A stretch of DNA of 64,000 bases from an uncultured Phycisphaerales bacterium (GTDB lineage: Bacteria > Planctomycetota > Phycisphaerae > Tepidisphaerales > Tepidisphaeraceae). The stretch covers positions 3,488,001-3,552,000 of the forward strand of contig CAVWLP010000002.1 in NCBI GenBank assembly GCA_963755915.1, read 5' to 3'. Both the position numbers and the translations under genes were made by a program. Each line of letters opens with the position of its first letter. Positions within the stretch are counted from its first letter, which is position 1. This document shows positions 1,698-63,101 of this stretch, piece after piece. The notes under the pieces are model-generated. The model saw only the letters and a program-made list of their open reading frames with translations, was not told where the DNA came from and searched no databases.

Positions 1698-4600
1698 ATG
1701 CGTCTGAAAAAGCTCATCCTTCACGGTTTTAAGAGCTTCGCGGATCGGACGGAGTTCGTCTTCGATCAGCCGATCACGGGCATCGTCGGGCCCAACGGGT
1801 GCGGCAAATCCAACGTCGTCGATGGGTTCAAGTGGGTGCTTGGCGAGCAATCCGCCAAGAGCCTGCGCGGCGACGCGATGATGGACGTGATCTTCAACGG
1901 CTCATCCAATCGCAAGCCGGCGGGGATGGCGGAAGTGGTGCTGGTGTTTGAGAACCCGCAGCGCGCCGATGGCACACGCATGCTGAATCTGCGACGCCGA
2001 TGAAGTGGCGGTCGGCCGGCGGCTGTTTCGCGACGGGACCAGCGAATATCAGGTCAACAACGCAGCGACTCGCCTGAAAGACGTCCGCGAACTGTTCCTC
2101 GACACCGGCATCGGCGTCGATGCGTACAGCGTGATCGAGCAGGGGCGCGTCGCGGCGATGCTGGAGGCCAATCCCGAGGAACGCCGGCTGATTTTCGAAG
2201 AGGCGGCGGGGATTTCGAAATTCAAGGCCCGCAAAAAAGAGTCGCAGCGGAAGCTGGAAAGGTGGATCAGAATCTGCTGCGCGTCAACGACATCGTCGAG
2301 GAAGTCGAAAAGCGTCTGCGCAGCGTGAAAATCCAGGCGGGCGAAGGCGCGGACATATCAGGAACATTCGACGAGGCTGGCCGAGATTGCGGCTGAGCTA
2401 CAGCCTGCAGGAATATCACACGCATGAGCGAATCGCGGCAAGAGCTGGAATCTCAGCGCGAGGAAGCTCAGTTTCGCTGGACGACGTCAGCGGCGATCTG
2501 GCGACGGCGCAGAACGGGCTGGCGGCGAAGAAGGAAGAGCTCGACAGTCTGTCGCAGAGCGCGGCAGCGCTTGGAATATCAACTCGTCCAGGCCCGGTCG
2601 CAGATTCAATCGGCCCGGCAGCGGCAGCAGTATGCCGTGCAGCAGCTTGAGCAGATCGCCGAGCAACTGGCGGGGTTTGAGCGGGATAAATCGGAGATCG
2701 AGGCGAAGCTGGCGGAGATGGCGGCGATCGCTGGCGGCGGAAACGGAGGCGCTGGCAGACGCTGACGGCCGAACTGGAAGAGCAGCGGAGACTGATCGAA
2801 TCGCGGCAGAAGCAGTTCAGCGACGGGCAGACTGCAGCTGAACTCGGCGCGGGCAGCAGATCGAAAAGCAGAAGTCGGCGATTTTGGATCTGATGCGGCA
2901 AGCTGGCGGCGATCGGCAGCCGGCTGGGGGCGATCGAGATCGAGCGGAAAAACGTGGCTTCCGCAGGAGTCTCGCCTGGGGACGCGGCGGGAGCAGGTGC
3001 GCAGGGAATTGGACAAGCTGGAAGCGGCCGCGCGAGGAACTGGCGGGGAAGCTGCGCGAAATTGTTCAGCGACGATCGAGCGGCAGCAGGCGGAACTGGA
3101 AGAGAAGCGCGGCAGGGCGGCGGCGCTGGGCAAACAGATTCGAGCAGGTCGGCGAGCGGCTGGGCGCGGCAAAGGAGCATCGTTCGGGGCTGATTTCGCG
3201 GCAGAAATTGCTGGCGCGATCTGGAAGCCAAGCGCGAAGGAGTCAGCGAAGGCGTGAAATCGGTGCTTCGGCAGCGCGAGACGGAATTTCCGTTTATCCG
3301 CGGCCTGGTGGCGGATGTGCTGCGCGTGGATGTCGAGCATGCGCACGATCATCGAAGCGGCGCTGGATGGACGCGATCAATTCTGGTGACGGATGATTCC
3401 GCCGGAGCGCTGGCGTCGCGTGAGCTGGAAGAACTGGAAGGGCGCGTGAATATGCTTTGCGCGGATCGGCTGAGCGATGCGGAGGATTCTTACGACTGGA
3501 ACCATCATCCGCAGGGGATTCGACTGGCGATCGATCTGGTGAGATTTGAGCCGGCGGATGCGGCGATCGCGCGGCATCTGCTGGGGCGGACGATTGTGGT
3601 GGATGATCTGACGGCCGCGCGCGAGCTGCTGGAGGCGGGGCCGGCGGGGTATCGGTATGTGACGCAGGAGCGGGGAAGTTTTGGAGGCGGATGGCGTGCT
3701 TCGCGCGGGGCCGCTGACGGCGGCGATGGGATTGCTCTCGCGCAGGTCGGAACTGGAAGTGCTGGGGCAGCAGATCGCGGAAGTCGATGAGCGAATCGAG
3801 CAGCTGGGACGCGAGCTGGCTGAGGGAAGTTCGCAGGTGCGGACGCTGGAAGAAGATATTTCGTCGCTGCGGAACGAGGTGTATCAGTCGAACACGGTGA
3901 AGGTGGAGCTGAGCAGCTCGGCAGCGCAGAATGCGGATCGGCGAGATGCGCTGAGGCGAGAGCTGCCGATCCTCGATGGGGAATTGAGATGCTGGCTACG
4001 CAGGGGCAGAAGCTGGCGGAGGATCAGGAAGTCGCTGGTCGAAGCAGCGCGGGGAGCTGGAAGCGGAGCAGGCCGAGGCGGGGAAGATGGTCGATGGAAT
4101 TGACGGCCGAGCAGGCGAGCATCTCGGCGAATCTTCAGCAGCTTGGCGAAGAGTTGACCGCGCTGCGCGTGCAACTGGGTCAGGTGGAGGAGAAGCAGAT
4201 TTCGCTGCGGCAGGCCGTGCAGCGGCAGACGGCGGCGCAGGGGGAACTCAAGCAGCAGATCGAGCGCGTGGAGAAGGCGGCGCAAGGCCGTCGCGGCGCG
4301 AAGGGCGGACGTGCAGGCACAGCAGCAGGCGGCGGCGCATGAGGAGGAGACGCTGAGCCGCAGCGTGGCGGCGGATGAGGAGAAATCGGGCGAATTGGCC
4401 GGGAAGATCGAAGAGGCGTCCGGGCAGGTCGGCGGAGCTTTCGGCGGCCGTCGAAAAAGCCCGCCAGCAGCGCGAAACGATCGAGCAGGAGATGCACGAT
4501 GCTGGAATTGAAGGCCGGCGAAGTGCGGGTGCGCATCGAAACGCTCGTGCAGCGGACGATGGAGGAATCGCAGCTGGATCTGCCGGCGAAATATGCGGAG

Positions 4601-15054: not shown

Positions 15055-15543
15055 CTACCCCGTATTCCCCTCCAGGTTCTCCATAAGCCCCCCAATCGTC
15101 ATCTGCAACACCGGATGCACCGCCCCCGGCGCAATCTCCGCCAGCGGCTCAAGCACAAACCTTCGCTCGTGCATCAGCGGGTGCGGTACCACCAACTCCT
15201 GGCTGCTGATGATCTGATCCCCAAACAGCAGAATATCAATATCAATCGTTCGCGGCTCCCATTTATGAACCCGCGTCCGCCCCAAACCCTTTTCAATCTC
15301 AAGCGTCCGATGCAGCAGCGCATGCGAGCCAAGTGTAGTACTAATTTCCGCCGCCCCATTCAAAAACGCCGGCGACCCAGCCGGCCCACCCACCGCCGGA
15401 TTCTCCAGCAGCGATGAAACCCGGGTAATCGAAACACCATCCGTGGATCCCAGCGCCGCCAGGGCCGCTCGGATATTTTCTTCCCGGTCGCCGAGATTGG
15501 CCCCAAGGCCCAGATATGCGATGACCGCCGGTTGAACGCGCAT
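15055..15543 (-). CDS. folK: 2-amino-4-hydroxy-6-hydroxymethyldihydropteridine diphosphokinase
   Basis: AYLGLGANLG, FLNGA, PRTIDIDILLF and PHPLMHERRFVL. Confidence 0.95.
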   Translation of the reverse strand: MRVQPAVIAYLGLGANLGDREENIRAALAALGSTDGVSITRVSSLLENPAVGGPAGSPAFLNGAAEISTTLGSHALLHRTLEIEKGLGRTRVHKWEPRTIDIDILLFGDQIISSQELVVPHPLMHERRFVLEPLAEIAPGAVHPVLQMTIGGLMENLEGNTG

Positions 15544-15549
15544 GCGATT

Positions 15550-16994
15550 TCAATTCCCCGCCGAGAGCGGAAATTCCTCGTCCCGCAGCGGAATCTGCAC
15601 GTATCGCCCAGGATCCCCCTCGTTCAGCGCGTTGACGATTCCGTTGACGCTCCCCAGATCGACCGAGGTCTTCTCTCCGCTCGCCGTGTCGTAAACCGTG
15701 CGATACCCGCGGATCACTTCATCGAAGTCGGCATTCGACCGGTCCTGGATCAGCTCGTCGTGCTGGATGGATTTCAGATACCCATCGAAGGCGTCTTCCT
15801 TCTCCTGCATCGAATGCTCGAAGGCGCAGAATCGCGCATTGGATGCCGCGATATCCTGCTGCGTGTGCTGCCCCAGCACCGCGTTGTCCAGCTTCCACGA
15901 TTGCGAAATCTCAATCATCAGCGGCAGATCCACGTCAAACGAACTATCCGGCCCCGTGATAACGCTGGCAAAAAGCCCCCACGTCCCATTGCCGATCGGA
16001 TAGCACTCAATCTGCGCCCACGCCCGGTAATGAATCGCCTGCCCGTTCAGCGAATGCGTCGTGCGAAAATAAATCCGCGCCGCCTGCCCCCCAGGCAGCT
16101 CCGCCTGCACCGGCGTAGACTGCATGATCTCATCCAGATCGATCCCCGGCCCCCCGCGCGCCTGCGACATATCGCTGAGCTGCGGCGAGAGATTCTTCAG
16201 CGCATCCTGCGGCCCCGTAAACGGCGCCACCAGCATCCGCGTCGCCGGCGTAAGCTGCCCCGTCGCCGCAAGCTGATTCTGCACCGCCGCCCCCATCGAG
16301 TTCGGCGTCACCACTTCAAACCCCGCCCCCAAACTGATCGATTGCCCCGCCGGCCCCGCAAGCGACACCGACCCAATATTGCTCGCGCTGACAATCTTCC
16401 AGTCCGGCGGAATCGAAATCGTCCCCACCCCATCCCCAAACGATTCCTCCTTCATCTGCGTATCCGCAGGTAGCGCCGCGGCAAGCTTATTCCACTCGGC
16501 AGCCGGCGCGTCGGCGGAGTCGTAAAGAATCGTAATCGCCGCCCCTTTCTCGCCGATCCCGCAGAATATAGTCCCCTGCACCGCTCGCGCGTGCAGCGAC
16601 CCCGAAAACGTCGCCCCCCCGCGCCGATGCTCATGCGCATCCGCAAACGCGCCCAGCACGGTTGGCTTCGAATCCAGCACCCGGCTCATATCCCGCAGCG
16701 CCGAGAGGATCGCCGCCTGCGGCGTAGTCGCATCCGATTTCTGCGCGAACATCGTATTTCCAACGCCCGCCGAGGCCAGCATCGTATATCCCAGAGACGT
16801 TGGATCGGAATCAGACGGCCCCTGGCGCTGGGGCTTGGCGCGGAAGATAGCGCCTGTGACTGCACGGTCGGTGCCGCGCCGGCCGCCGAGACGTCCGAGT
16901 TTTGAAACCCCGCCCGGATTGCAAAGATAACGCCAAGGATAAGCAAAACCACAAACCCCCCGGCTCCGCCGAGGAGGAGAAATTTGCTGCGCAT
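15550..16994 (-). CDS. Hypothetical membrane-anchored protein (frameshifted near the 5' end)
   Basis: N-terminal TM segment MRSKFLLLGGAGGFVVLL with GGAG RBS, continuing in the long ORF ending at 15550. Confidence 0.6.
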
Positions 16995-17169
16995 GTCGGA
17001 CTCCGTTGTGACCCCCAAATACTAACACGCCCTCCCGCCCCTTGCGAGTGAACTCCCTCAAAGCCCCCTCCCGTTTAGCCGCGCCCCGCAGGGAAGCGCG
17101 TCCCTCAGCAGCGCCCTCCGACTTCCGCAACCCGCGCCGAGCAACTCCCCTCCCCCCAAAATACCCTCC

Positions 17170-18395
17170 CCCCAAAATCCCCCCGACGACCATCGGGGGG
17201 CCTCCCACAAAAACCCGAGCCCGCCGCGCGACCCCCATCCCCCAACCGACTCCCATACCAAAGCTGTGGGGTGCTCGCACCCACAGAAACACCCCGGAAC
17301 CCACAACTCCTCCCATACTCGCGCACAAAATGGGGAAGCGCGATTCAAAGACATCCTCTCTCCCTGTGTAGCCGCCCCCGCCTGACTTCGGTGAGCTGTG
17401 TCGAACCGCGGGGCGCGTCTTTCGATGTCCACAAATCGCAGTCCCTCATTTTGCACTCCCACCAATTCTTCAATCTCCCAAACACGATCGGTCAGCCCTC
17501 ACGTCGCGCCTCTTCCGCATGACGCGCTATGCCGCTCCCCTTCACACGCCTGATCGTCGCCTCTCAAATTTCCCCGGAATTCGGTGGTGGGTCAGTTTGA
17601 AATTAAATTCTATTTTTGCGCAATCGAGATAAGCACGCGAGGATTAAATCAATTAACGACGCAACCCATGCGAACATTAGGATCGTGCCAATCGGTGCGA
17701 GGATCAACCCTTCTTCGGAACCACCAAGTATCATCAGGCTCGCCAACAGAACAATGGCGACCAGGCCGCACGAAAAGAGGATGAAACATTTCAAAGGCCC
17801 GCTTACGGAGGAGCGCGGACCGTGAGGAGGAGGAGAAGGAGGAGGAGGAGAGCGATAGTCGAGCGGATTAATCTCCGGCATTCCCCCAAATACTAATCGG
17901 TCAACCCCACCAATTCTTCAAGCTCCCGAGTGTAATTGGCCGGCGCGCATTGCTATCGCACATGCCCCTTTTTACCCCTCGCCCGGTACTCCGGGAGAGG
18001 GTTGGGGGTGAGGGTCTTCAGCATTTTTCACTCTACACGCGATTGCTCCGGGTCAACCCGCCCGCACCGCTACCGTGACGCGAAGCCCGCGGTGAATCCG
18101 GCAGCAGTTGCAGTGCATGAAGTGAAGCGCAACCATCGCCGCATGATCCTCGATTTATTTTGAAAAGGCATTCGTCAGGTGCGCAAATCGCCGTATCAAC
18201 ATCCCCATGACCAAATTAACGCGCTCAAAGGCAAAACACCCTTCCCCCCAAAGCCCCCCGATGGCCATCGGGGGCCTCCCACAAAAAACCTCCGCTCCGT
18301 CACGCGACACCAGTTCCCCACCGCGCCCCCATACCAAAGCTGTGGGACTTCGGCGAGCTCAGTCGAGCCGTGCTCGCACCCACAGAAATCCCCAC
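17170..18395. repeat. Two copies of a ~125-bp composite intergenic repeat (17170-17295 and 18247-18392)
   Basis: ccccccga.g.ccatcgggggcctcccacaaaaa...cccataccaaagctgtggg..tgctcgcacccacagaaa is present in both. Confidence 0.8.
17603..17881 (-). CDS. Small two-TM cassette protein with N-terminal P-L-D-Y motif
   Basis: MPEINPLDYRSPPPP followed by two hydrophobic helices; the stop abuts an IS1 IR. Confidence 0.7.
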   Translation of the reverse strand: MPEINPLDYRSPPPPSPPPHGPRSSVSGPLKCFILFSCGLVAIVLLASLMILGGSEEGLILAPIGTILMFAWVASLIDLILACLSRLRKNRI

Positions 18396-18528
18396 CCTGC
18401 ACCTAAAGATTTCAGCCCCCCGGAACGCCCACGGACTTCGGTGAGCTCAGTCGAACCGCGCTGCCGTGAGAAATTTCCAAATGCCCTCACCGACCGAAAT
18501 TGACCCGCCGCGCAAATTTCGGTTGTGG

Positions 18529-19155
18529 TCAATTAGAAATCGATTCCTTTTTCGAAGGAATCGTTCCGCATTCCGGACATCGCTCCGGCGTAGCGCGCAC
18601 GTCGTAGCCGCAGTTTACGCATTGGCCCAACGCCCCGCGCTGCCGTCTTCGCCGAATCCCGATGATTGCCACTACTGATGGGTACAACGAAAGCCCTATC
18701 AAGAACCAGTGCGGTACCGACACCGTGTCGATTCGGGAACTTTCAAATCCATTCCAGGGAAAGTCATCGCGCTCCCAATGAAACCCTATTCGATTCCAAA
18801 TCAGACTCGCGAAAGGCCCAAAAGCAGGTCCAGACTCATGATGGAAACCAGGATTGCTATCATATGGCATCAGGGCGAGACCAGGCTCAACATCGTTGCT
18901 GAGCGACAGAAAAGGAGGAAACGGATTTGAACCCGGCGGAGACGAAAACTGCATCGGCTCGTACTCGACCAAAATGCAGCCTCGGTTTGACTCCAATATA
19001 TAATTGGTCCAACGAGTTCCTCCGACATCGTGCGTGGGGTAACTTAGCTCGTCGAACCGCCAATAACTCCGCGCCCAGAAAGCCGCCGCCAGCACACTAA
19101 CTCCCAGTGACAACAACGCGAGCGCAGCTAACGACCATTGGTGATGCCGTCTCAT
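18529..19155 (-). CDS. Two-TM membrane protein with C-terminal zinc ribbon (CxxCGYDVRATPERCPECG)
   Basis: MRR..SL...FWARSY..VPHWFL..RRRR..CVNCGYD; ends ISN*, read from a degenerate IR. Confidence 0.85.
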   Translation of the reverse strand: MRRHHQWSLAALALLSLGVSVLAAAFWARSYWRFDELSYPTHDVGGTRWTNYILESNRGCILVEYEPMQFSSPPGSNPFPPFLSLSNDVEPGLALMPYDSNPGFHHESGPAFGPFASLIWNRIGFHWERDDFPWNGFESSRIDTVSVPHWFLIGLSLYPSVVAIIGIRRRRQRGALGQCVNCGYDVRATPERCPECGTIPSKKESISN

Positions 19156-19269
19156 CGAATGGGATTGTACCGCGTCTCAGTCGATCAGCTTCAGCAAATC
19201 CTCAATCTCCCAAACCGTATTAGATTGGCCAGTGGCCGGAATTCGAAAGTAGGTCAGTTTGAAATAAAA

Positions 19270-19788
19270 TTACTCTTTCGACAGTATTGTCCCGCATTCC
19301 GGGCAACGGTCGGGTGTGGCGCGTAGGTCGTAGCCACAAGAGGAACACATGCTTTGCACCTTAGTTCGCCGACGCCAAAACGAAATCGCAAATATCGCCG
19401 GAAAAACCGCCAGTAAAAGAGAAATGAACCAATCGGGGGTCTGCAAATGATAAAAGACGGAGGGAGCGGCTTTTGGAAAATAAGCGTCTGTTTGAATGAG
19501 TCGCTGGTAACGAAATCCCGAATCTCCCAGATTCGACTTTATCAATCTCGCTAGATCGGTGTCCCATCGCTCGTGTCGCCAATAGAAGCTATACCCGGCA
19601 GATCTATCGAGAATGTCGAAGTTCATCGAAACGAGCCCCAAATTGCTGCGAGCGACGATTTGATAATTTCCTTCCTTTCTGACCAGCATGTCCCAGCGCA
19701 GGTAACTGCGAATCCACAAAGCAATCATCGCAACGCACAGCACCAACGAGCCCGTCGCAATCGTATTGAATAACCGCCGCCGCTTCAT
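19270..19788 (-). CDS. Two-TM membrane protein with C-terminal zinc ribbon
   Basis: [43 protein letters not shown]. Confidence 0.85.
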   Translation of the reverse strand: MKRRRLFNTIATGSLVLCVAMIALWIRSYLRWDMLVRKEGNYQIVARSNLGLVSMNFDILDRSAGYSFYWRHERWDTDLARLIKSNLGDSGFRYQRLIQTDAYFPKAAPSVFYHLQTPDWFISLLLAVFPAIFAISFWRRRTKVQSMCSSCGYDLRATPDRCPECGTILSKE

Positions 19789-19887
19789 TTGCGGGAATTG
19801 TACCGCCCCTCAGTCGATCGTCCCCACCAATTCCTCAAGCTCACAAACATGATCGGCCAGCACCGCCGGTAGCGGGTCAGTTTCAAA

Positions 19888-20205
19888 TTATTTCGTGTTT
19901 TCTGTGAGTTTTGGAAGCGAGCGTAGACCTCTAACCAACTTCCAGGCACGCCAGATTACATAAAGAAATATCGCGATGCCGCAAAGCAGAAAACGCCACC
20001 CTAGTTCTTCGAAATGTTCCTTCTGAGGTTTCAGCGGGGTCGTGGAGGCAGCCCCAAAGTAATCCAGAGCGCCTAGGAGCAACCAAAACCCTATGAAAAA
20101 CGGAATCGACAGTAAAATCGCTTTTACGACGGGATAATGATTGTCATCGCGCCGTGTCGTATCTGGCGAGGCATAAGAAAGTGGTTCCATTGGCTTGTCT
20201 GCCAC
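19888..20205 (-). CDS. Small two-TM cassette protein with P-L-S-Y motif
   Basis: MADKPMEPLSYASP followed by two TM helices; the stop abuts an IR. Confidence 0.7.
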   Translation of the reverse strand: MADKPMEPLSYASPDTTRRDDNHYPVVKAILLSIPFFIGFWLLLGALDYFGAASTTPLKPQKEHFEELGWRFLLCGIAIFLYVIWRAWKLVRGLRSLPKLTENTK

Positions 20206-20375
20206 ACCTCAAAATACTACCGCAAAAGCCCCACCAATTCCCCGATCCACCAAACATCATTAATGCAGCCGTCACGTCACGCCTCTTCCGCTTGACGCGC
20301 TATGCGGCTCGCGATCACACGCCGGATTGTCGCCTGTCAAGTTTCTCCGGATTCCGGTAGTGGGTCAGTTTGAAA

Positions 20376-20786
20376 TTAAATAGTTTTTTCGACGGTTTTT
20401 CCGCATTCGGGGCAACGGTCCGGCGTGGTGCGGAGGTCGTAGCCACAGTCTCGACATGAGCCCGGAAGAATACGAGTAGCTTGCGCTTCACGGTATCGCA
20501 ACACGACCCAGCAGAGGGGGAGTGTTATCGTCGAAATGAAGGCTATACCAACCGGAATGCGCCATCCCAATGCGGGGAAGAATGGCCGAACGTGGGCAAG
20601 CGACGTGTCTTGATAGGTGAATACCCAGACGCCGTTCACATCGGTCGTTGTCATGGTTGTAGGAAGTGGCGGAGGCAAAGCGACAGGGCGTCTGAAGATA
20701 TAAACCCTATCGTAGACGAGGCCCACAAAGAGCAACAACGAAATGGCCGCAAGCCCGTTGAATACTTGTCGGCGGAAGCGTTTCAT
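20376..20786 (-). CDS. Two-TM membrane protein with C-terminal zinc ribbon
   Basis: [38 protein letters not shown]. Confidence 0.85.
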   Translation of the reverse strand: MKRFRRQVFNGLAAISLLLFVGLVYDRVYIFRRPVALPPPLPTTMTTTDVNGVWVFTYQDTSLAHVRPFFPALGWRIPVGIAFISTITLPLCWVVLRYREAQATRILPGSCRDCGYDLRTTPDRCPECGKTVEKTI

Positions 20787-20807
20787 CGCCGGAAATTGTA
20801 CCGCGCT

Positions 20808-20950
20808 TCAGTCAATCAGCTTCAGTAATTCCTCAATCTCCCAAACATGGTCGGCCAGCCCCGCCTGCATTGCTGGCGTCACGCGAAGCGTCTGCTGAAC
20901 CCGACAGTAATTGTAGTACATGAAGTGCAGGGCAACTTGCGCCGCGTGAT
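20808..20950 (-). pseudogene. Orphan IS1-family transposase C-terminal fragment
   Basis: NHAAQVALHFMYYNYCRVQQTLRVTPAMQAGLADHVWEIEELLKLID*, matching the C-terminus of the 57420 transposase. Confidence 0.85.
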
Positions 20951-21518
20951 TCAGTTCGCGGCAATCTCCTTTTTCGGCGGTGGGATGGTCCCGCACTCAG
21001 GGCAACGGTCGGGCGTGGGCGCAGATCGTAGCCGCAGTTGTGGCATATCCCGATGTGGCCTTTTTGTCTTCGCCTCAAAAACGCATAAAACCACCACGTT
21101 GGAGGTACAAGGAGTGCGATGAGTAGAAACCACAGCGGCACGATTAAATGATACTCCGTCGTTCCGTCAAACACCTTGACTACGCCGATTGCGAACCGAG
21201 ATCCCCTCAATCCGGACCATCCGCCGAGCGATTCCGCGCTAAAACCCTGGATGCCGTCTCCCGACTCCCAAGCAGTCGGACCGAATCCCCAGTGGCGGAA
21301 ATATCGCGGCAAGCCATACTCAGTCGCAATTTGTAGCGCGATTTGGCCGCCGCCTGTTCCAATAGTAACCCACTCAGGTCTAAAATGGGGGCTCACAATC
21401 GAAAAGCTAAAACTGTCGAAGTGGCTCACCGCGCCAACCAAAGCAACCCTACTCCGCCACTAAGCAGTAGCGAAACCATCGCCAGGCGGCGCAACATACG
21501 TTGGCCAAACCGTGTCAC
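20951..21518 (-). CDS. Two-TM membrane protein with C-terminal zinc ribbon (two apparent frameshifts)
   Basis: GTG start 6 nt after TATAAT; ..[37 protein letters not shown]. Confidence 0.75.
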
Positions 21519-21537
21519 GCTACAATTATATCGCATT

Positions 21538-21680
21538 TCATTCGATCAGCTTGAGCGAGTCCTCGGCCCACCGGACTGTCTCTGACAGACCAGTAGCCAT
21601 CGCGGGCCTGACGCGAAGCGTCGAATGGATTTTGCAAAAGTTGTAGTGCATGAAGTAGATCGCAATCGCGTGGGCGTGTT
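21538..21680 (-). pseudogene. Orphan IS1-family transposase C-terminal fragment
   Basis: HAHAIAIYFMHYNFCKIHSTLRVRPAMATGLSETVRWAEDSLKLIE*. Confidence 0.8.
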
Positions 21681-21937: not shown

Positions 21938-23181
21938 CTAGAACTCAAAATCCGTCCCGCCCAGCCGCAGGTCCACTTCCGCCAGCACCCGCCTCTCCTC
22001 CGCCTCGTCCTTTGCCGAGAACGTAACGCTGAACCGCACATACGCCCCCGCATCATCCCACGGAACGGTGCTGATGAGCTTTTCAGTGATCAGCCACTGG
22101 CTGAAATCCTCCGCCCGCCCGAACCCGATGCGCTTTCCGTCCTTGCCCACCCCGCTGCGCGGAGATTTCACATACAGAAAAAACGACCCGCACGGCTTCC
22201 TCGCCGGCAGCTTGTGGCGATTCAAGACCGCCACCAGGCCGTCCATCCGCCGCGAATATTTCGCCGCGATCGACCGGGTGATTTCCGGATGATCCAGCGC
22301 ATAGCGCAGGCTTCTTGGATCGCCAAAAACTGCCCCGAATCCGTGTTGTCCTTCACATCCGCGTAAGCCCGGACCAGCAGCCGGTTCCCCGCCACGAACC
22401 CCAGCCGCCACCCCGTCATGTTGAACGCTTTGCTCATGGAGTGCAGCTCGATGCCGACGTCGATCGCCCCAGGCGTCGCCAGGAACGAGAGCGGCTTGCC
22501 GTCAAACACCAGCGCCGCATACGCCGCGTCGTGAATGACCACGAGATTGTGCTGCTTGGCAAACGCGACAACCGCCGCGAAGAATTCGGGCGTGGCGCTC
22601 GCGCCGGTCGGATTGTTCGGATAGTTAATCACCAGCGTCTTGGCCCGCCGAAGCTTGTCGGCCGGCACCGAGTTCAAATCGGGTAGGAAACTGTTCTTCT
22701 CCAGCAGCGGGATGTTGTGCACTTCGCCGCCGTAATACTGCGCGTGCGTTCCGAAGACGGCGTAGCCCGGCGAAGTCATGAGGGCCACGTCGCCCGGGTT
22801 GATCAGGCACGCAGGCAGAATCGAGAGTGCCGCTTTCGAGCCGATCGAGTGCACGATTTCGCTTTCAGGGTTGATCCCCTCGACGCCGCAGACGTTTTCA
22901 AGCCATCGCGCCGCGGCCTCCCTGTAGATCGCACCGCCGTTATCCGCGTAAGTCCGGTTCTGCGGTTTTCCAGCCGCGTCCGCCAGCGCCCGGATGCATT
23001 CGGGAAACGCCATCGCGTCCGGCTCGCCGACGCCCATGTCAATCAGTTCGACGTTCGGATTGGCGGCCAGGGCGGCGCGCTTCGCACGTTTGATGATTTC
23101 GAATTTGTAGATCTCCGTGCTTTTGCCGAACTGCGCGCCGCCGATGCGGTTGGCGAATAGAGACTGGATGTATGGATCCAT
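21938..23181 (-). CDS. dapL: LL-diaminopimelate aminotransferase (frameshift near 22300)
   Basis: FANRIGG..FGK..IYKFE.IKRAK, INYPNNPTGA, HDAAY, SMSKAFNMTGWR and STVPWDDAG. Confidence 0.9.
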
Positions 23182-52537: not shown

Positions 52538-53002
52538 TTGACCCTCCGTTGTTTGTGGTAATTGCAAGACAGATATGCAACACAATTCGTCCGTAGTCAA
52601 ACATGTATTGCGATTATTTAGTTAACAATCATTCGTGCGCGGTGTGTCAGCGGGGCGATTGTTTGGGTGGGGTCCAACCTTGCCCATGACCATGCCGGGT
52701 GGGGCTGGAATCCGATAGTCGAAAAACGGATACGCAAATTCCAAAAATGACTTTCAGTCGGACATTCGGCAGACACAAACGTAGCCTACTCATCCCGGTA
52801 GGCATCGAATCCATTTTTAGACCCCCACCCCGTCGGAATCTGACTCGCAAAATAAATATGCGAAATTTTGGGGCTGTTATCTCACATTGCCGTCAGACGT
52901 GACATTCAATTCACGCAAGCTCGATTACGGGAGATTGAGGATTTGCTGAAGTTGATTGACTGAGGCGTGGTAGGATACGGAGCCATTAAACGCCACCACC
53001 CA

Positions 53003-53470
53003 ATGTTGATGTTGCTTATGTCATTTGCGATGGCATTCATCTTCGCAATCGCATGGGTCATCGTCATGACGTTGACATTGCCCGCGACGGATGAAATGCA
53101 TGGACAGATGCCCTTTGCAGACCCGCTTGTCTTTCCGATCATGTCAATTGGGGCATCAATAAGCGCTGTTCTCACCTTTCCATTCTTTTACTTTTCCCTG
53201 CGCGACCGTCCGCTAAATACATCCGTTTGGATAGTCGTTGGGACTGTGCTGGGAGAAATCGTAATCGTTGTTCCAGTAAACGCGGCAATGGGGCTTCTAG
53301 GATCATTTTTGGCGTTCGGCATCGGAATATATCTAGCCAGGAAATTCACCAAATCCATGATATCCGCAGGCCATTGCGTTAAATGTGGCTACGACCTCCG
53401 GGCCACGCCCGACCGTTGCCCGGAATGCGGGACAATCCCGCCGCCGAAAAAAGAAATCACCGCAACATGA
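53003..53470 (+). CDS. Four-TM membrane protein with C-terminal zinc ribbon
   Basis: ..[31 protein letters not shown]. Confidence 0.8.
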
Positions 53471-53634
53471 AGTATTCCCACAACGTCGCGTTGCGTTTCA
53501 CGCACCTCAACTATCGCCGGATTCACCAGACGCTTCGCGTCACGCCAGCCATGCAAGCCGGGCTGGCCGATCATGTTTGGGAGCTTGAGGAATTGGTGAA
53601 TCTGATCGGCTAAAGTGCGTTATGATTACAGGCA

Positions 53635-54178
53635 ATGAAACGCTTGCACAAATTGCCACTCAAGGCTGCTGTGGCGATATCGCTGGCTTTGAATATAGCA
53701 TGTGTTGCGGCATACGTTTTCGGCGGAGCAAACCGACATATAACATTCGGTGACGCAACGCGCGGCTCTAAAAGTCAATATGACTTTGAGGTTGACCACA
53801 AAGCGTTCACCGTTAGCAAAAAAATTGGAATTGACCACATCCCGGCGGGCGCACGGTTTCGGACAAAAGAACCGGTTCTCCGTACAATTAGACGATTGGT
53901 ATATCTTTACGAATTGGCACGTCGGAAGTGAAATTGCCGGAGAGTATCCGGATGAAGATAGAGGCATCCACCTAATTTCCGCCCGCGTGCCCTTGTGGTG
54001 GCCTCTAATTCTAACAACGATACTACCCTTTGGTTGGATGACCTCATCGGTTCTCCGGCGACGCCGCGCCAGACCGGGCCATTGCACTTCTTGCGGCTAC
54101 GATCTCCGCGCCACGCCCGACCGATGCCCGGAATGCGGGACAATCCCGCCGCCGAAAAAAGAAATCACCGCAACATGA
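53635..54178 (+). CDS. Two-TM membrane protein with zinc ribbon (one frameshift)
   Basis: [47 protein letters not shown]. Confidence 0.8.
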
Positions 54179-54339
54179 AGTATTCCCACAACGTCGCGTT
54201 GCGTTTCACGCACCTCAACTATCGCCGGATTCACCGGACGCTTCGCGTCACGCCAGCCATGCAAGCCGGGCTGGCCGATCATGTTTGGGAGCTTGAGGAA
54301 TTGGCGGGGCTGATCGGCTGAGCGCGGTACAATTCCGCA

Positions 54340-54836
54340 GTGAATCGGTTCTGCCGATGGCTACTCAACGGGCTCGCCGTAGCATCATCGCTCTTGTGCT
54401 TGGCGTCCGTCTTTGCTTGGGTTAGCAGCTATCACGCCGAAAAGAGCTTTGCGCTGCCTTTCGGCGCTGGTCCGTATTGACATTTGCAAATGGCGATATG
54501 GAAGGCTTCTGGACTGGTCCTGATTCTCGATTCGACAGCTTCAGCGGCGGCTTCAGGATAAGTCATTATGAATCTTTTGTTGGCAGTCTGGATGGACGGA
54601 CAAGAGGTCCCGAATATCCCGGCGTCGCGTATTGGTCTTGGGTAATACATGACTGGTTCATCGTGACCGTACTCATAGCGCCAGCAGTGGGCTTATTTAT
54701 CCATCGTTTCCTTGCAAAGAGAATCACATCAGATGGTTTTTGTTTTCAGTGCGGCTACGACCTTCGGGCCACGCCCGATCGATGCCCGGAATGCGGGACA
54801 ATCCCGCCGCCGAAAAAAGAAATCACCGCAACATGA
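54340..54836 (+). CDS. Two-TM membrane protein with zinc ribbon (one frameshift)
   Basis: GTG start, [49 protein letters not shown]. Confidence 0.8.
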
Positions 54837-54967
54837 AGTATTCCCACAACGTCGCGTTGCGTTTCACGCACCTCAACTATCGCCGGATTCACCAGACGCT
54901 TCGCGTCACGCCAGCCATGCAAGCCGGGCTGGCCGATCATGTTTGGGAGCTTGAGGAATTGGTGGGG

Positions 54968-55327
54968 CTAATGAACTGAGGAAGCAGACATTGTTTCAAT
55001 GAACCGCGCGACAAACTTTCTTTCATCGCTAAGTGTTGCTCCCCTCACTTTCGCTCGCAGTTGATTTATTTCCCAAACGACCGATTGTTCAATCGGAGAA
55101 TCCAGTTTAAGCCGCAATGCAAGGATTTCCTTCTCCAACCATTCAAGACGCGCCGCCTCTTTATCTCGCCAATGTTTGCCAGCGAAAGCTCCCCTGGGAC
55201 GGAGCGCCCGTATAGCGGCTCTGGAAAACTGGCCGTCAAGGCAAGCCCGGAAGGCGGCGATGGCCGTGTCTCGGTATTCACCCTCCATTTGTTCAAGCCG
55301 TTTTAATAGCCGGTCGGCCTTGGCCAT
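54968..55327 (-). CDS. Hypothetical IS passenger protein
   Basis: 119-aa ORF between the last tail and the IR. Confidence 0.6.
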   Translation of the reverse strand: MAKADRLLKRLEQMEGEYRDTAIAAFRACLDGQFSRAAIRALRPRGAFAGKHWRDKEAARLEWLEKEILALRLKLDSPIEQSVVWEINQLRAKVRGATLSDERKFVARFIETMSASSVH

Positions 55328-55462
55328 GATATGCCCCTGTTGTCCACCACCGGCATTCTAACTGATTCTGTGATTATTTTTCAAACTGACCCACTACCCG
55401 AAATCGGGTATTGGTATATTCTGGAGCCATCGAAAAATAAATCTTTGCGGTAGAATCCCGGC

Positions 55463-55675
55463 ATGAAAAAGCCGAAGCGCTATGACGTTGCCCAAACCGC
55501 CAAACGGATCGTTGACCAGACCATAGCTGAGCATGAGAAGCCCCTCCCGCCCGGCATAGAGGCGGCATGGGAAGAGTGGTCGCGAGGCATAGGGAAAGTC
55601 GATGCGAGGGGCATGTTGCTGCTCAGGGCAGCGTTTGATGTGGGGGTGAAGGCGGCAACGCGAGAAAGCAAATAA
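55463..55675 (+). CDS. Small protein at the IS left end, resembling the N-terminus of the 62865 protein
   Basis: YDVAQTAKRIVDQTI versus RDPNQLAKMIVDMAT. Confidence 0.6.
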   Translation: MKKPKRYDVAQTAKRIVDQTIAEHEKPLPPGIEAAWEEWSRGIGKVDARGMLLLRAAFDVGVKAATRESK

Positions 55676-55681
55676 GCGGCA

Positions 55682-56811
55682 TTATTTTTCTGCGTGCCGA
55701 TATTTGTTTACTTCCGGTTCGATGGAATTCCAGGTAGCGATTATCTTGTTGAAGTGATTTGCCAATATGCCGTCTTTGTCTAGGGCGGCAAATGCTTTCA
55801 TCTTTCCATCTACACCGCCGTTCGTAATTTCCATCAGGGCATTTCTTCCGTGAACGATTGCGTATCCGATAACGTCCCTAATTGCTCGCGAGTGTGCCTC
55901 GCCGTCCGTGTACCGAGCAAATTGGCAGACAGTGTCGAAAGCCCGTGTCGCCCGACGTTCTGGTGGAGGGTGCGTGGAACCATCTAGGTCGTTCGGATCA
56001 ATCCCCTCAGCGAACATCCAAAACATGATGAGTACGGCAAAGGCCCAATCGAACACTATTAGGACAGTCGGGCTGACAATATGATCGCCCCTTTGGAGTA
56101 AAGGACGAACATTTTGTTCGTAATGTGTAGGATGCTGAAGGCCGCGCATAAAACTGGTGATGGCGGCATACCCGTCGGTGCTCGTTTCGATGCTTGCATC
56201 TTGAGGTTATCAGCGGCCTTCGATCCCTTCGCGTAAAGCTCCATGAGGAATGGTAGATTGTTTTTGGCCGCATATTCGGCGTGACCAAACGTGATGTGTG
56301 CCAGTTCATGGTAGACCAAAAATTCAACCGCGTGTTCCGCAAGCAATTCGGCGTAGCGTTTTCGACCGGGGTCTATGGGAGCCATTTCGGCCAATGATTC
56401 GCCCGTGCGCCGTCCGCTTAATAACAAGGTTTCATAGTTACTCCAAAGTCCGGGGAGGCTTCGCGCTGTCTCCACCGTAGCGTCACCTGTGGTGCCCATC
56501 GCTTTCGGATGTGCCATTATTCTGTAAAACGTGTCGTATAGCAGCGGCACGGTAGCAGTGAAAATGCCAATGATTCCCGTATGTGATGGGCGGTCGTATC
56601 CGGCATTGAGGTTGAAATCCGGGTTCTCAACATAGCCAAATTCGATCTGCGGCATTTGCGTATTACGGGCATTAATATGCCCCTGAATGAGCCTCTCTGC
56701 TTCCTTCAGGTTTAACGTGCGCAGGTCGTTCGCGGCTGTGTCGTGTGTGCTTGGATCGGGCTTTTGCAGTGGAGCAAACGCCTGATCGAAGATTTCTTTT
56801 GGGGTTGGCAT
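55682..56811 (-). CDS. Passenger HExxH metallopeptidase-like protein (frameshift near 56150)
   Basis: EFLVYHELAHITFGH; ..E..AD region. Confidence 0.6.
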
Positions 56812-56841
56812 TTCGCCACTTCGTTATTTACAAGGAGTCTA

Positions 56842-57135
56842 ATGACCACTGCTGAGTTTTCTGATTTGGAATTACGAATTGCCATTGCAAAATCGCTGCC
56901 GTTTGCTTGGAAGAATATTCACATGCAGGACGGCAACGTGGTTGGCTGGGTTCAGGGAGGAATCTCAGAGCGCCCGATCTCCATTCCGCACTGGACCCGC
57001 AGTTTGGCGGACGCGAGGTTTTTGGAAGAAATGATGCTGTCTCGCTTCCCAAAACAGTATTCATTGGGCCTCCATTCCTTGGGCGTTCGTGTTGGCGCGG
57101 CTTCCCGCGCCAAATTTGCGAAGCCGCACTTATGA
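56842..57135 (+). CDS. Hypothetical passenger protein
   Basis: RBS aaggag; IPHWTRSLADA motif. Confidence 0.5.
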   Translation: MTTAEFSDLELRIAIAKSLPFAWKNIHMQDGNVVGWVQGGISERPISIPHWTRSLADARFLEEMMLSRFPKQYSLGLHSLGVRVGAASRAKFAKPHL

Positions 57136-57339
57136 CTTTGCAGTCGTCCGCTTCCCCGGCTTAGCCTTTTTGTTCAGCTTGTCTTCAGCAAACCCCAACA
57201 GAAGCGGCCTAGCCCAAGTTGCAACGTCCGCCCCGTCCGCAGCAGCGGCCTCAGAAACAATTTTCTTCTGCTCCTCTGTAAGCGGAATCCGCAACTCTTC
57301 GCTTTTCCGCTCCGACGGGTCTTTGTGTGGTCTTGCCAT
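57130..57339 (-). CDS. Ribbon-helix-helix-like regulator divergent from the transposase
   Basis: MARPHK....LRIPLTEEQK..V.EAA...G.DVATWAR. Confidence 0.7.
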   Translation of the reverse strand: MARPHKDPSERKSEELRIPLTEEQKKIVSEAAAADGADVATWARPLLLGFAEDKLNKKAKPGKRTTAKS

Positions 57340-57422
57340 GCTGATTATTATAGCAATAAAAATCTGAGTCGTCAAGGATTTTCCTTTACTCATTGATTAC
57401 TATTGCTATAATAATCAGCATG
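57337..57422. promoter_or_regulatory. Symmetric divergent leaderless promoters (perfect 22-bp inverted repeat)
   Basis: catgctgattattatagcaata at 57337-57358 and tattgctataataatcagcatg at 57401-57422. Confidence 0.85.
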
Positions 57423-58169
57423 TACAAACTGACCACGAATGAGCGGGCGCAAATCCTTGCGGCTCTGGTTGAAGGCGTCAGCATCGCCTCTATCTGCCGC
57501 ATGTACGGCGTGAACAAAATCACTGTGCTCCGGCTACTGGCCGACGCCGGAACGCTCGCCGCTCAATATCACGATTTGACCGTTTGCGACATTAAATCGC
57601 GACGAATTCAATGTGACGAAATTTGGGCATTCGTGGGAGCGAAACAGCGCAATGTTCCCGAAGAAAGTCGCGGTCAATTTGGTCGTGGCGATTGTTGGAC
57701 TTGGGTTGGCATTGACGCGGACAGCAAGCTTGTCGTCTCCTATATGCTCGGCCTGCGTGACGGCGGATACGCCAAGGACTTCATGTGCGATCTGGCCAGC
57801 CGACTTGCCAACAAGGTTCAGTTGACCACCGATGGCCTCAGCGTCTATCTGGACGCGGTTGACGATGCCTTTGGCGGCGACATTGACTATGCCCAGCTTG
57901 TGAAGATTTACGGCCCCACAAAGGCCGATCCGGGCCGCTACAGCCCGCCGCAAGTCATCGGCGCTGTAAAAGAGACGGTATGTGGTTCACCACAACCGCG
58001 CCACGTTTCCACCAGCTATATCGAACGCCAGAACTTGACGGTTCGAATGGGCAATCGGCGCTTTACCCGTCTGACAAACGCGTATTCAAAAAAAGTCGAG
58101 AACCATGGCCACATGGTTGCGCTGCAATACTTCCATTACAACTTCTGCCGCATTCACATGACTATTGAA
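57420..58169 (+). pseudogene. IS1-family DDE transposase, 5' part (interrupted; the 3' part resumes at 62628)
   Basis: HTH, QCDEIW, WTWVGID, TTDG, STSYIERQN, RRFTRLTNAYSKK and YNFCRIHMTIE. Confidence 0.9.
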
Positions 58170-58638
58170 TGGCGATTTGCCATATGGAGCCGCGGCGACA
58201 TACGGATTCACTGTAACGGACTCGGCGGGCACTTGCAGAGGTAGTACCAACTCAACTTGCACTGGAAATAAAGCCACAGGTAATGGTAATGGCCAGATTG
58301 AAGGTAACTTTAATGGTGGAATCGATCTATCGCGCATTTCCAATATGGGAACGGCCAGCAACCTCTGGCACGCAGGTGGGAGAAAGGCGAGGGAGGCAGG
58401 TGCGGTCACAGATAGCAACCGCGTGCTGTGACTCAGTCGTCGTCAGCCATTCAGATGATAGGCGCCTGGGAGCGAAAAGAAATCAAAAACTCCCCGGGCG
58501 ACCGATGTTTCACTGGCGTGTCAGTACGGACGTTACTGCCATCGGATGATTCGGGCGTTGCTGAGGAAAGAAAGATTCGTTGTGTGGGCGATATGTGGAG
58601 TGCACTCCAGACACCGCGCACCTAAGCTTTGCATCCAT

Positions 58639-60867: not shown

Positions 60868-60945
60868 CTCCCCTCCCTTTTTGAAGACGTGGTGGCTCCT
60901 TCGATTGCTAATGTTTTTCTATAAGGTCCGGAAAAACTCGCTTAT

Positions 60946-62627
60946 CCGGGATTTCCCATATGACACTCCGCCCACGAACGTCGCCGGCAATTTTGCGTAG
61001 CATACCCAAGTCAGGAGCGAGGATCAAGTGTTTTCTTGGCTCCCCACCGTCGCAATCCCGAAGATTTGTACGGCCTTCCCCTTCATTTTGTCACTTCCGG
61101 CAGGCTTTTCGATGCCCTGCGAACAGACTGCCACCGTTGCCCCAAACATTTCGCAAGCTTTTCACGCTGTCCGTTGTCATCCCGATGCCGCCATCGGCGA
61201 GTCGAAGTCGCCGGATTCTTGCCAGGATCAGCCGGAACAACTCGCGGGGAACCGCCACCTCCGCCATCTGGAACACCACCGACCGGGCGTGATGCACCAC
61301 TTTCGCCCCGATCTTGATCAGTTTCTCCCGCAGCGTGGTCAGCGACCAGTGCTTTACGCCAACGGGCAACGCCAATCGCCGCAGGAAGTTCCCCAGGTTG
61401 TAGGCCAGGGCGAACAGTTGCAGCCGCACCTGATTGTCGGCGAAGTCGTGGCAACTCAGCCGCGTCCAGTTCACCGCATTCTTGCCTTCCTTGATCCACT
61501 GCTCCGCCGTTCCGCGACCGTTGTAAAACCACACCACGCTGGCGGCTCCGCCGCCCAGGTTGGTGACGATGAAGCCGACGCGGGGAAACAATTCGCCCTG
61601 ATGCCACTCGACCTTGGCCACGACACGACGGGCCTTGTCCCAACTGGCGGCCTGATACATGAAGTCGTGATACCAGCACGATGGGCTTCTTCGGCGGGCG
61701 ACCCGACCGGGCGCTTCAGCAGGTGCTCGATTTCCCGCTCCAGCAGGCTGTTGGACTTCAGGCGGATCGCATAGCCGTAATCTTCGGCTTCCAGAAACAG
61801 ATACAACTCGGGAATGGCGAATGCCGCATCACCGCGAAAGAACTTCTTCACCGTCGTTGTTCGATAGCGGGCGACCACCGGCTCCAGCACCGATCGCCAG
61901 TCATCGGCACTATGGACATTGCCGTTGCGAAGCAGGGCGCGTTCCAGGTCTCCATCCTGATTGAAACAGAACAACGGATGGTAGCAGGTGCATTCAAAGT
62001 GGCCGTTGTACGCCGAGCCTTCCTGATGGCCGTGCGTCTCGCTCACCGAGCTATCCATATCGAGGATGATCCGGTCGCCGGGCTTGCGCTGCCGCAACCC
62101 GTCGATCCATTGCCCGGACAGGTCGGTCAGGACTTTCAGATTGCCTGGCTGCGTCAGCACGTCGGTCTCAAACCGGCCCATCTGGCTGGTGGAGGCGGCG
62201 GTGCGTTCCCTGGCTCTCCCGCCCACGACCTGCCGCATCGTCGGATCAACCGCCAATCGTTCGGCATCATTGGTATCCTCGTAACCGGCCAGGCGGCTGT
62301 AGATCGACTGACGCAAAAGCCCCACCAAAGTGTGCTGGATGTTCTTTCCGGTGCGCCAATCCTGGAGCAGCGTGCCGGCCATTGTCGTCAAGCCCAGCGC
62401 CTCATCCAGTTCCCGGTAGACCAGCAATCCCGCGTCGCTGGTCACTCTTCGAGCCGTGGAATTCGAGCTTCAAACTGCCGTCAAAACCCACCCGAAGAGC
62501 GTCCTTGCTGCTTTCACCCATTGGATTCTCCGGACTTCATGTCCTGAATGTCGAAAAAGAGCCTGATTTGTGCGGCCAAACGACAAACCACTATACGTGA
62601 AGTCCACTGCCATCTGGCAAATCCGGG
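60946..62627 (-). mobile_element. IS1380-family insertion sequence
   Basis: IRL cccggatttgccagatg (read on the minus strand from 62627) and IRR ccgggatttcccatatg at 60946. Confidence 0.88.
61091..62521 (-). CDS. IS1380-family transposase (frameshifted)
   Basis: [50 protein letters not shown] and LIKIGAKVV. Confidence 0.92.
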
Positions 62628-62776
62628 TTGAAACAACGCCAGCGGTAAAGGCAGGCATCGCCGACAAGGTTTGGACGATGGTTGATTTTGTGAAGATGCT
62701 GGAGCGTGAAGAGGGCTTGCTTGGCGGTCGGTTGACGAACTACAAGCCGAATGTTCCGAAAAAACGGGCATATTGA
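62628..62776 (+). pseudogene. IS1-family transposase, 3' part
   Basis: ETTPAVKAGIADKVWTMVDFVKML..., in frame with 57420-58169 once the insertion is removed. Confidence 0.88.
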
Positions 62777-62864
62777 GAATATACCAATACCCGAAATCGG
62801 GTAGTGGGTCAGTTTGATTCCTCGAAAGTTTGACGCCAAACGCAACTTGTGGCAAGGTTCATCC

Positions 62865-63101
62865 ATGCTTAAACGATCAAGAATGCCCCGCGATCCTAAC
62901 CAGCTTGCCAAGATGATCGTCGATATGGCCACGGGGAACGCCCCAGCCGAACCCGCTGGCCCGGCGAAGAATCCGGCGGCGGTCGCGCTGGGAAAGCTGG
63001 GGGGACCAAAGGGCGGCACTGCAAGGGCAAAGGCGCTATCGCCTAAGCGGCGGAAAGAGATTGCCAAAAAGGCGGCGGCGAAGCGGTGGGGAAAGGCTTA
63101 A
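62865..63101 (+). CDS. Small basic protein of the type found beside IS1/IS1595-like transposases (often labelled histone H1-like)
   Basis: PRDPNQLAK.IVD.ATG..KNPAAVALGKLGG.KGG.ARA..LS...RKEIAKKAA.KRW. Confidence 0.8.
   Translation: MLKRSRMPRDPNQLAKMIVDMATGNAPAEPAGPAKNPAAVALGKLGGPKGGTARAKALSPKRRKEIAKKAAAKRWGKA

Follow-up and report, generated by a model that had tools for sequence, protein, structure and literature searches.

We have analysed a 64,000-bp stretch of the genome of an uncultured Phycisphaerales bacterium (hereafter the window; G000:C2:3488001-3552000, from a 6.63-Mb assembly of three contigs with 59% G+C), and describe here an array of insertion sequence (IS) remnants and small genes at positions 17458-21678. 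In the array, the 3' end of an IS1-family transposase gene is represented by seven remnants, which accompany six small genes, all on the minus strand. Four of the genes encode zinc-ribbon (ZR) membrane proteins and two encode small proteins with two transmembrane (TM) stretches, and the right inverted repeat (IRR) of an IS is present in four clear copies and one degenerate copy. The locus is probably a row of decayed right ends of passenger-carrying IS1-family elements, which would have been stacked by insertion targeted to resident ends and would then have decayed.

Searches of the window with the 21-bp inverted repeat (at most 3 mismatches) returned 6 matches against 0.00 expected, four of them in the array and all of these on the minus strand. 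The transposase tail motif was matched 9 times in the window (0.01 expected), including 5 times in the array, and an nhmmer profile of the tail DNA gave 29 matches at E<=1 in the 6.6-Mb genome, of which seven (T0 to T6) belong to the array. A first-pass annotation of this DNA had counted six genes, seven tail remnants and five genes ending at an inverted repeat. These counts hold, with the qualifications that the T2 remnant is weak (nhmmer E=0.21) and that the five repeats comprise four clear copies (<=3 mismatches) and a degenerate one after the gene ending in ISN*.

Read along the minus strand, the array begins with T0 (21538-21678), the last ~46 codons of an IS1-family transposase of a lineage resembling IS_B, one of two reference elements in this genome. 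T0 ends in LKLIE* (tblastn E=5.7e-10; nhmmer E=8e-11) and aligns by blastn to positions 2921-2979 of the other reference element, IS_A. The ZR membrane gene G0 (20951-21518) has two frame breaks in the assembly and ends in a hybrid junction in place of an IRR; T1 (20808-20960), a tail that runs from about residue 225 (RELNHAAQ...LKLID*; tblastn self E=8e-30; 86% identity to IS_A 2895-3052), is fused to its 3' end. G1 (20376-20786) encodes a ZR membrane protein of 136 aa, is preceded by TACAAT ending 8 nt ahead of the ATG, and has a stop codon that abuts an IRR without mismatches (20356-20376). Outside this IRR lie a 95-bp spacer (20261-20355) and T2 (20217-20260), a short degenerate tail (DVWWIGELVGLLR*) aligning by blastn to IS_A 2996-3029. 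G2 (19888-20190, or from 20205 if the upstream GTG is used) follows, a small two-TM protein of the LSY type with 100 aa from the ATG or 105 from the GTG, and closes on an IRR with 2 mismatches (19868-19888). T3 (19810-19867; …AVLADHVCELEELVGTID*; nhmmer E=1.4e-18) begins at the terminus of that IRR and leads into G3 (19270-19788), a ZR membrane protein of 172 aa, which is followed by an IRR with 3 mismatches (19245-19265) and the 8-mer gaattccg. After the short tail T4 (19177-19236; …VWEIEDLLKLID*; nhmmer E=1.2e-17) comes G4 (18529-19155), a ZR membrane protein of 208 aa that ends in SISN*, its last codons reading into the degenerate IRR (18521-18540; one base missing, 13/21 matches ungapped, identified by eye). 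Beyond ~310 bp with short dispersed repeats, a longer transposase fragment of 135 bp (18074-18208; about residues 201-259, with stops; 77% identity to IS_A 2836-2970) is divided by a 144-bp inserted repeat (17930-18073) from T5 (17893-17948; nhmmer E=6e-4). The last gene, G5 (17603-17881), encodes a two-TM protein of the LDY type with 92 aa, and is followed by an IRR with 1 mismatch (17583-17603), a second, 84-bp copy of the spacer (17499-17582; 82% identical to the first) and T6 (17458-17498), an nhmmer-detected tail without a following gene.

The source of these pieces can be recognized in IS_A, an intact element of 3,614 bp (C2:3550800-3554413) that starts on the plus strand at the end of the window (62800-64000) and runs 2,413 bp past it. 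Its inverted repeats are 21 bp long, and cgaaatcg stands as an 8-bp duplication at either side. Starting at the left, the element has a basic protein of 78/95 aa, a Peptidase_M78 (IrrE-like) gene and two others on the opposite strand, the transposase, a ZR gene and the IRR. At its right end, a transposase of 284/286 aa is followed by TATAAT 8 nt ahead of the ATG of a 177-aa ZR gene, whose stop abuts the IRR. All conserved pieces of the array align either to IS_A 2836-3067 (the tail) or to IS_A 3506-3614 (the gene end and IRR). Since the intact IS_A has the same layout of transposase, hexamer, ZR gene and IRR, each array unit corresponds to the right end of a passenger-carrying IS and not to a cassette of a type of its own; this bears out the earlier proposal that the units are IS1 right-end passenger slots. 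Extra genes thus lie inside the inverted repeats on both sides of the IS_A transposase, as in the insertion sequences with passenger genes termed tIS in the IS6-family review PMC7986276, which also mentions alternative pathways of IS1. The genes left of the transposase, from window position 62865 on, are the Peptidase_M78 gene, a 109-aa neighbour, a 216-aa gene and the small basic protein, and a copy of the C-terminal part of the latter also lies close to where IS_B begins on the left. Past the right end of IS_A (C2:3554414-3558500) come an 834-aa protein and several small minus-strand open reading frames (ORFs), which may be another mobile element. IS_B occurs in two identical copies (IS_B1 and IS_B2; 2,442-2,443 bp) with 8-bp duplications, and its transposase stop and IRR are only 117 bp apart. 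Full-length transposase genes were found by tblastn of the genome with the tail as query.

IS1-family elements end in inverted repeats of ~20 bp and make short target duplications (8-9 bp for IS1), and the termini seen here are of that type: 21-bp inverted repeats with 8-bp duplications flank IS_A, IS_B1 and IS_B2, as well as copies in two relatives (G009 and G010). The IS_A transposase passes Pfam PF03400 DDE_Tnp_IS1 (29.5 bits, cut-off 24.1). Of four IS models, NCBIfam transpos_IS1 (NF033558) gives it the best score, 58.3 bits against an equivalog cut-off of 100, and it therefore belongs to a distant subgroup rather than to classical IS1. Classical IS1 has two reading frames joined by a programmed frameshift, whereas the transposase in question is a single open frame of 284-292 aa.

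Relatives of the transposase are encoded by 586 stretches in species-representative genomes, and the best 80 of these (59-82% identity) were compared; they belong to Planctomycetota, Acidobacteriota, Zixibacteria, Nitrospirota, proteobacterial lineages and others. An IRR (<=4 mismatches) lies 57-1892 bp past the transposase stop, with varied cargo, in 41 of the 80 loci, and overlaps or abuts the stop in 25; a candidate with 5 mismatches was the best available in 6, and 8 had none. The slots contain DNA methyltransferases, membrane proteins, DUF4065-like genes and many genes of no recognized kind, and two of the methyltransferase slots begin with TACAAT 8-9 nt ahead of the ATG. Only one of the 80, from a Phycisphaerales metagenome-assembled genome (MAG), has a ZR gene in the slot. 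The closest of them (82% identity), an intact element in a Tepidisphaeraceae MAG, carries a 95-aa relative of G2 and G5 there, the last codons of which (…FISN*) extend into the IRR. In the genus itself, an 84%-identical transposase of G001 is paired with a different 169-aa membrane protein, and a 70%-identical one in G010 with a methyltransferase-like gene. In nearly all related elements (L017-L096), the left repeat is also 0.8-3.5 kb away from the start of the transposase, and this IS group therefore carries cargo on both sides. These loci point to an IS1 subgroup, represented in many phyla, that has a regular cargo slot.

The ZR proteins G0, G1, G3 and G4 share the C-terminal motif C-x2-C-GYD(L/V)R-x-TP-x-RCPECG, and G2 and G5 have two hydrophobic stretches and an N-terminal L(S/D)Y motif. 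No array cargo protein reached a curated Pfam or NCBIfam cut-off, ribbon matches being sub-threshold (e.g., DZR at 16.8-20.1 against 27.3 bits), and none had a PADLOC or PHROG match. A Protein Atlas search with the two-TM protein gave a best score of 0.83 and no family. The ZR family is very large: among 8,000 proteins scored, 7,408 matched at E<=0.001, and none is named beyond "hypothetical protein". An AlphaFold model of G3 (80 sequences; pLDDT 86, pTM 0.70) places a TM helix, a domain of six strands and one helix, a second TM helix and the ribbon in succession, so that the ZR proteins are predicted to have a variable outer beta domain flanked by two TM helices, and a zinc ribbon in the cytoplasm. 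Foldseek of the model against the PDB returned nothing at E<=0.001 (TM-scores up to 0.21 for the whole protein), and a wide VIA-align search gave a best Z of 7.0, with matches confined to the two long helices.

Genome-wide, the ZR motif was found 38 times. Six matches with more than 30 residues beyond the motif were excluded, leaving 32 C-terminal ones; G0 is missing from this set because of its frame break. A tail lies at most 900 nt upstream of 15 of the 32, compared with ~0.06 expected from 29 tail matches in 6.6 Mb, so that the suspected association of this family with the tail clearly exceeds chance. Seven of the 32 gene ends have an IRR at the stop, and five have the next tail within 260 nt instead. 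Three further ZR genes without a tail match, and one with a weak tail (E=0.058), have a degenerate, in-register IRR at the stop, with 16, 14, 14 and 13 of 21 matches; among 20,000 random 60-mers used as a control, 3 reached 16, 50 reached 14 and 275 reached 13. Outside the lineage the link between ZR genes and the IRR is weak: about five IRR-like C-termini were seen by eye among the 119 of the 120 best G3 homologues that have the ribbon motif. IS1-family elements are best read as the main vehicle of one membrane-protein family in this genus.

A hexamer (TACAAT, TAGTAT or TATAAT) stands 6-8 nt ahead of the start codon of the array genes, and TAnnnT ends 5-10 nt ahead of the first ATG in 12 of 29 ZR genes, against 2.6% of random ATGs. 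The hexamer may be the promoter of a leaderless mRNA; the genes had been called leaderless from the outset, and it is the position of the hexamer that suggests this. A sigma-70 promoter scan of the region gave 2 sites with 2.4 expected and was uninformative. Only one pair of units, at two loci, is alignable, with 91.5% nucleotide identity over 682 bp, and its homology extends from the start point of the short tails to 14 nt beyond the IRR. Its dN/dS of 0.35 over 180 codons suggests that the cargo is under constraint, and retention of the cargo may reflect usefulness to the host.

Remnants of these elements are common in the genus. In 13 genomes, 98 transposase matches comprised 17 full-length genes, 71 tail-only remnants and 10 other fragments, and tail-only remnants were present in all 13, seven of which have no full copy. 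Their starts span residues 154-252, with peaks at 224-232 and from 238. By our own reading of the list of ends, the present genome has 12 right-type ends of this repeat and one left-type end, which is that of IS_A. Several junctions can be read directly. At C2:1389281, an IRR passes into transposase codon ~173 through a common CTAC, leaving a tail of 102 codons. In the hybrid junction that the first-pass annotation had reported after the sixth gene, and which is present as described (PPPKKEIAAN*, then NHAAQVAL in another frame), the IRR is kept to AACTGA and the transposase resumes at about residue 227; the last codons and stop of the gene are therefore derived from the IRR. T3 adjoins its IRR without any spacer. 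The readable junctions look like deletions at microhomology or direct abutment. In a separate observation, terminal repeats resembling those of IS1 face each other 88-112 bp apart at C3:1297899-1297986, C3:1278433-1278544 and C3:584788-584877; these look like miniature inverted-repeat transposable elements (MITEs) of a related element.

Insertion beside a resident end is recorded at a second, younger array in the window. Array 2 (52906-55398, plus strand) contains three ZR genes joined by hybrid junctions, followed by a 119-aa gene on the opposite strand and an IRR. Directly beyond it on the plus strand (55399-62799) stand the 8-mer cgaaatcg, IS_E (55407-62791; a second, interrupted IS1-type element that differs from IS_A and has its own repeats) and cgaaatcg again. 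The order at the border is thus IRR, cgaaatcg, IS_E, cgaaatcg, IS_A, cgaaatcg. The recurrence of a single 8-mer at all three element borders means that each of two later insertions struck exactly the 8 bp adjoining a resident end. Likewise, in G009 an inverted repeat end is followed by ggcggttc, a complete IS and ggcggttc, with the elements tail to tail. The 8-mers after IRRs are also alike elsewhere, with gaattccg twice and ggaatccg once in the main array and gaattcca and gaattccg in an array on contig C3. IS_E itself is split by ~4.4 kb, its transposase body lying at 57420-58244 and its tail at 62618-62776, and the insert carries a 742-aa protein, the C-terminus of which is hydrophobic and rich in arginine, and a further ORF resembling a DDE-type transposase. 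In G001, two IS copies separated by 12 kb (L097 and L098, on contig C4) have the 8-mer ccatttca to the left of one and to the right of the other; neither has a matching duplication of its own, which suggests a rearrangement between the two.

The array lies between a class I/II aminotransferase gene (21938-23181) on one flank and, on the other, folK (HPPK; 15055-15543) with an adjoining 480-aa gene to which no family was given (15550-16992). The content of this interval turns over between relatives, as a proposed synteny comparison was meant to reveal. From the aminotransferase to the 480-aa gene the interval is empty in G006 (~207 bp) and G009 (~210 bp); G011 is without the 480-aa gene, and folK follows after ~50 bp; G007 has ~6.7 kb there. 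The closest relative, G001, has flanks with 87-88% DNA identity and four ZR genes that are ~30-44% identical to those described here. The two share the last IRR, spacer, T6 and a repeat-rich stretch (17603 to 17170) at 88% over 438 bp, and the gene directly upstream of that IRR is the two-TM gene in one and a 192-aa ZR gene in the other. Within the main array, boundary segments are 75-88% identical, and gene bodies are no more than ~30% identical in aa sequence and show no similarity as DNA. The junction and tail segments of array 2 are 87-98% identical around gene bodies that do not align. The difference in boundary identity fits the earlier view that the main array is the older one.

Short-read contigs from public soil-metagenome runs of one study, which contain this stretch, were compared with the assembly; no RNA data set was listed as containing it. 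All covering contigs have an extra base behind 21018 (C; four runs), 21434 (G; two runs), 22303 (two runs) and 17612 (four runs), positions that are homopolymer-like. With both of its extra bases, G0 has an open frame of 198 aa that includes the zinc ribbon, and it is therefore probably intact; with the base behind 22303, the aminotransferase has a 430-aa frame, as in the nearest relative. The G0 frame breaks and the aminotransferase frameshift are probably assembly errors, so the sixth gene is present with its hybrid junction as the first-pass annotation stated, and is frameshifted only as assembled. Joints in the short-read contigs sit in repeated boundary segments, and may reflect related strains or assembly at repeats. 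A short dispersed motif (~30-40 bp, around ...cgactgagctcaccgaagtc...), with ~33-48 copies in the genome, occurs in 18209-18520 and 17100-17440, and for two of the four runs the depth of a repeat at 17975-18007 is 10-20 times that of the sequence around it. Both kinds of repeat are interspersed with the array, in G001 as well.

We propose that new element copies would insert exactly beside a resident end, reusing the same 8-bp target, so that end-to-end stacks form. Deletions, at least some of them at short homologies, would then remove the left repeat of the downstream copy, its upstream genes and most of its transposase, and leave the tail, hexamer, cargo gene and IRR. Later recombination at conserved boundaries (the tail, first codons, zinc-ribbon end and IRR) may add, remove or swap units. 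We infer this order of events in the history of the array. With repeated insertion beside resident ends and subsequent decay, no new mobilisation mechanism is needed to account for the arrays.

Several findings weigh against this reading. There is no intact element at the array itself, the history of which is therefore pieced together from other loci. Insertions adjoining an end were seen at two places only (five copies of two 8-mers), and none of the 80 loci of other phyla has an IRR with a same-type left repeat within 20 bp. A second right-pointing end occurs in 3 of the 80, in none of them with a convincing tail between the two ends. The short tails share a start at about residue 250 ("AGLADHVW") in four left contexts, namely an IRR (T3), an IRR with an 8-mer (T4), the spacer (T2, T6 and two on C3) and unrelated DNA (C2:2031306), which random deletion would not predict. 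Array-2 junctions that are 87-98% identical around unalignable bodies require gene conversion or cassette exchange besides decay. Lastly, this reading does not account for the 84-95-bp spacer, which is like neither transposase nor left-end sequence. It follows four IRRs in this genome and one in G001, is found only outside IRRs, and forms with its neighbours an IRR-spacer-tail module that occurs twice in the array at 82% identity.

Two identities were considered for the spacer. As the interior of a left end, four spacers aligned to the IS_A and IS_B left ends by Smith-Waterman scored within the range of shuffled sequences, and blastn against 66 left ends of other loci as well as IS_A and IS_B gave nothing below E=0.19. 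A position-weight test of spacers against left-end interiors gave weak scores, at p ~0.03-0.04 for four flanks, 0.006 and 0.0005 for two and none for the rest, and 4 of 67 control flanks also exceeded the 99th percentile. As a structured RNA, the spacer had no Rfam match at E<=0.1 and folded no better than shuffles (z=-0.15).

The first-pass annotation had suggested that the units are a domesticated cassette frame, possibly mobilised in trans. In that case the tail-gene-IRR unit would be a non-autonomous cassette on which a transposase acts in trans, through the IRR and a cryptic left end in the tail or by one-ended transposition, with arrays growing beside IRRs. We consider this unlikely. The start of short tails within a few bases of one point in four contexts speaks for it, as do the unit that is 91.5% identical at two loci from that start to 14 nt past its IRR, the preponderance of tail-only remnants over full genes in the genus (71 against 17) and the IRR kept at 7 of 32 ZR gene ends. 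However, no left inverted repeat and no flanking 8-bp duplications were found around any single unit examined, and mobilisation in trans is therefore unsupported. By our count of the ends, 12 are right-type and only one, that of IS_A, is left-type, the tail boundary resembles the left repeat at ~11 of 18 positions with gaps (by eye), and tail starts scatter over residues 154-252, their second peak at 224-232 being explained by the hybrid junction. Should the units prove to move by themselves, they would constitute a cassette system driven by a DDE transposase.

It is doubtful, too, that the right end is a platform for gene capture and display, in which the transposase would recognise the IRR and a site in its own last ~25 codons and so move promoter-cargo-IRR units or stack them by resident IRRs. 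The footprints of such a platform would be the recurrent short-tail boundary, the spacer outside IRRs and near-identical junctions around unrelated bodies, and such a platform would need no integrase to assemble fast-varying membrane proteins into integron-like arrays. The short-tail start, the spacer and the array-2 junctions keep a cassette-like mechanism alive at a low probability.

Tandem duplication of one unit by unequal crossing-over, with bodies that diverged fast and boundaries kept alike by gene conversion, would give the single orientation of all units, the boundary identities of 75-88% here and 87-98% in array 2, the IRR-spacer-tail module repeated at 82% and the different content in G001, as unequal exchange would. 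As the whole origin of the array it is nevertheless improbable. Gene bodies have at most ~30% aa identity and do not resemble one another as DNA, members of two unrelated cargo families are intermingled, T0 derives from another (IS_B-like) transposase lineage, and the sequence after each IRR differs among units. Duplication cannot alone create new cargo, and probably acts on top of repeated insertion. That the repeats are boundary sites of integron-like site-specific recombination and the genes true gene cassettes is highly improbable: small promoter-proximal genes in one orientation, a conserved ~21-bp element between them and content varying in relatives recall such a system, but what forms the boundary is a transposon's terminal repeat, and this transposon is present intact between target duplications, the conserved upstream piece is a fragment of a transposase pseudogene, and the scanned neighbours are folK, the 480-aa protein and the aminotransferase, no search having been aimed at recombinases.

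The reading as stacked and decayed right ends shows how a passenger-carrying IS can leave working genes in the core chromosome: the element brings its own putative start signal, stacks by earlier copies, loses its transposase and keeps its cargo. It also ties a very large membrane-protein family without assigned function to a mobile vehicle in one bacterial lineage.

Among known systems, integrons are resembled in the appearance of the locus and its turnover between relatives; they differ in that the boundaries here are an IS end and a piece of transposase pseudogene, not attC-like sites, and no integrase was seen, although none was specifically searched for. IS30 targets its own inverted repeats, and junctions of IRR and left repeat occur in dimers of IS3, IS30 and IS21. 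Insertion next to an IS end is common to these and to our elements, but the spacing here is the 8-bp target duplication and not 2-3 bp. Because the joined elements IS_E and IS_A are different family members, they represent independent insertions and not dimers. Translocatable units of IS26 insert next to a resident IS26 and build arrays in which a full IS copy is kept between cargo segments, with no new duplication. Addition of DNA exactly beside a resident copy and cargo arrays of one orientation are likenesses to our array, in which, unlike in those of IS26, tails of only 10-50 transposase codons remain between genes in place of complete copies; the same 8-bp target was duplicated again per insertion, and the transposase genes were later lost. 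Mobile insertion cassettes (MICs) and MITEs are transposase-less derivatives that retain both terminal repeats and are moved in trans. The array units are likewise IS-derived, lack a transposase and may carry a gene, but have the right repeat only and no target duplications, which sets them apart from MICs.

Another likeness is to passenger-carrying IS1 elements. Long single-ORF members of the IS1 family with passengers (the ISMhu11 group) are recorded in ISfinder. ISMhu11 was not met with in the literature searched, and arrays of this kind were not described in anything found by searches on passengers of IS1-family elements, on tIS, or on zinc-ribbon or IS arrays in planctomycetes. IS_A and 41 of the 80 related loci are like tIS in that further genes lie between the inverted repeats, downstream of an IS1-type transposase with a single ORF. 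The differences from tIS are the fixed layout of the slot here, where a hexamer directly follows the transposase stop and the cargo gene ends in or at the IRR, and the persistence of decayed right ends as arrays in this genus.

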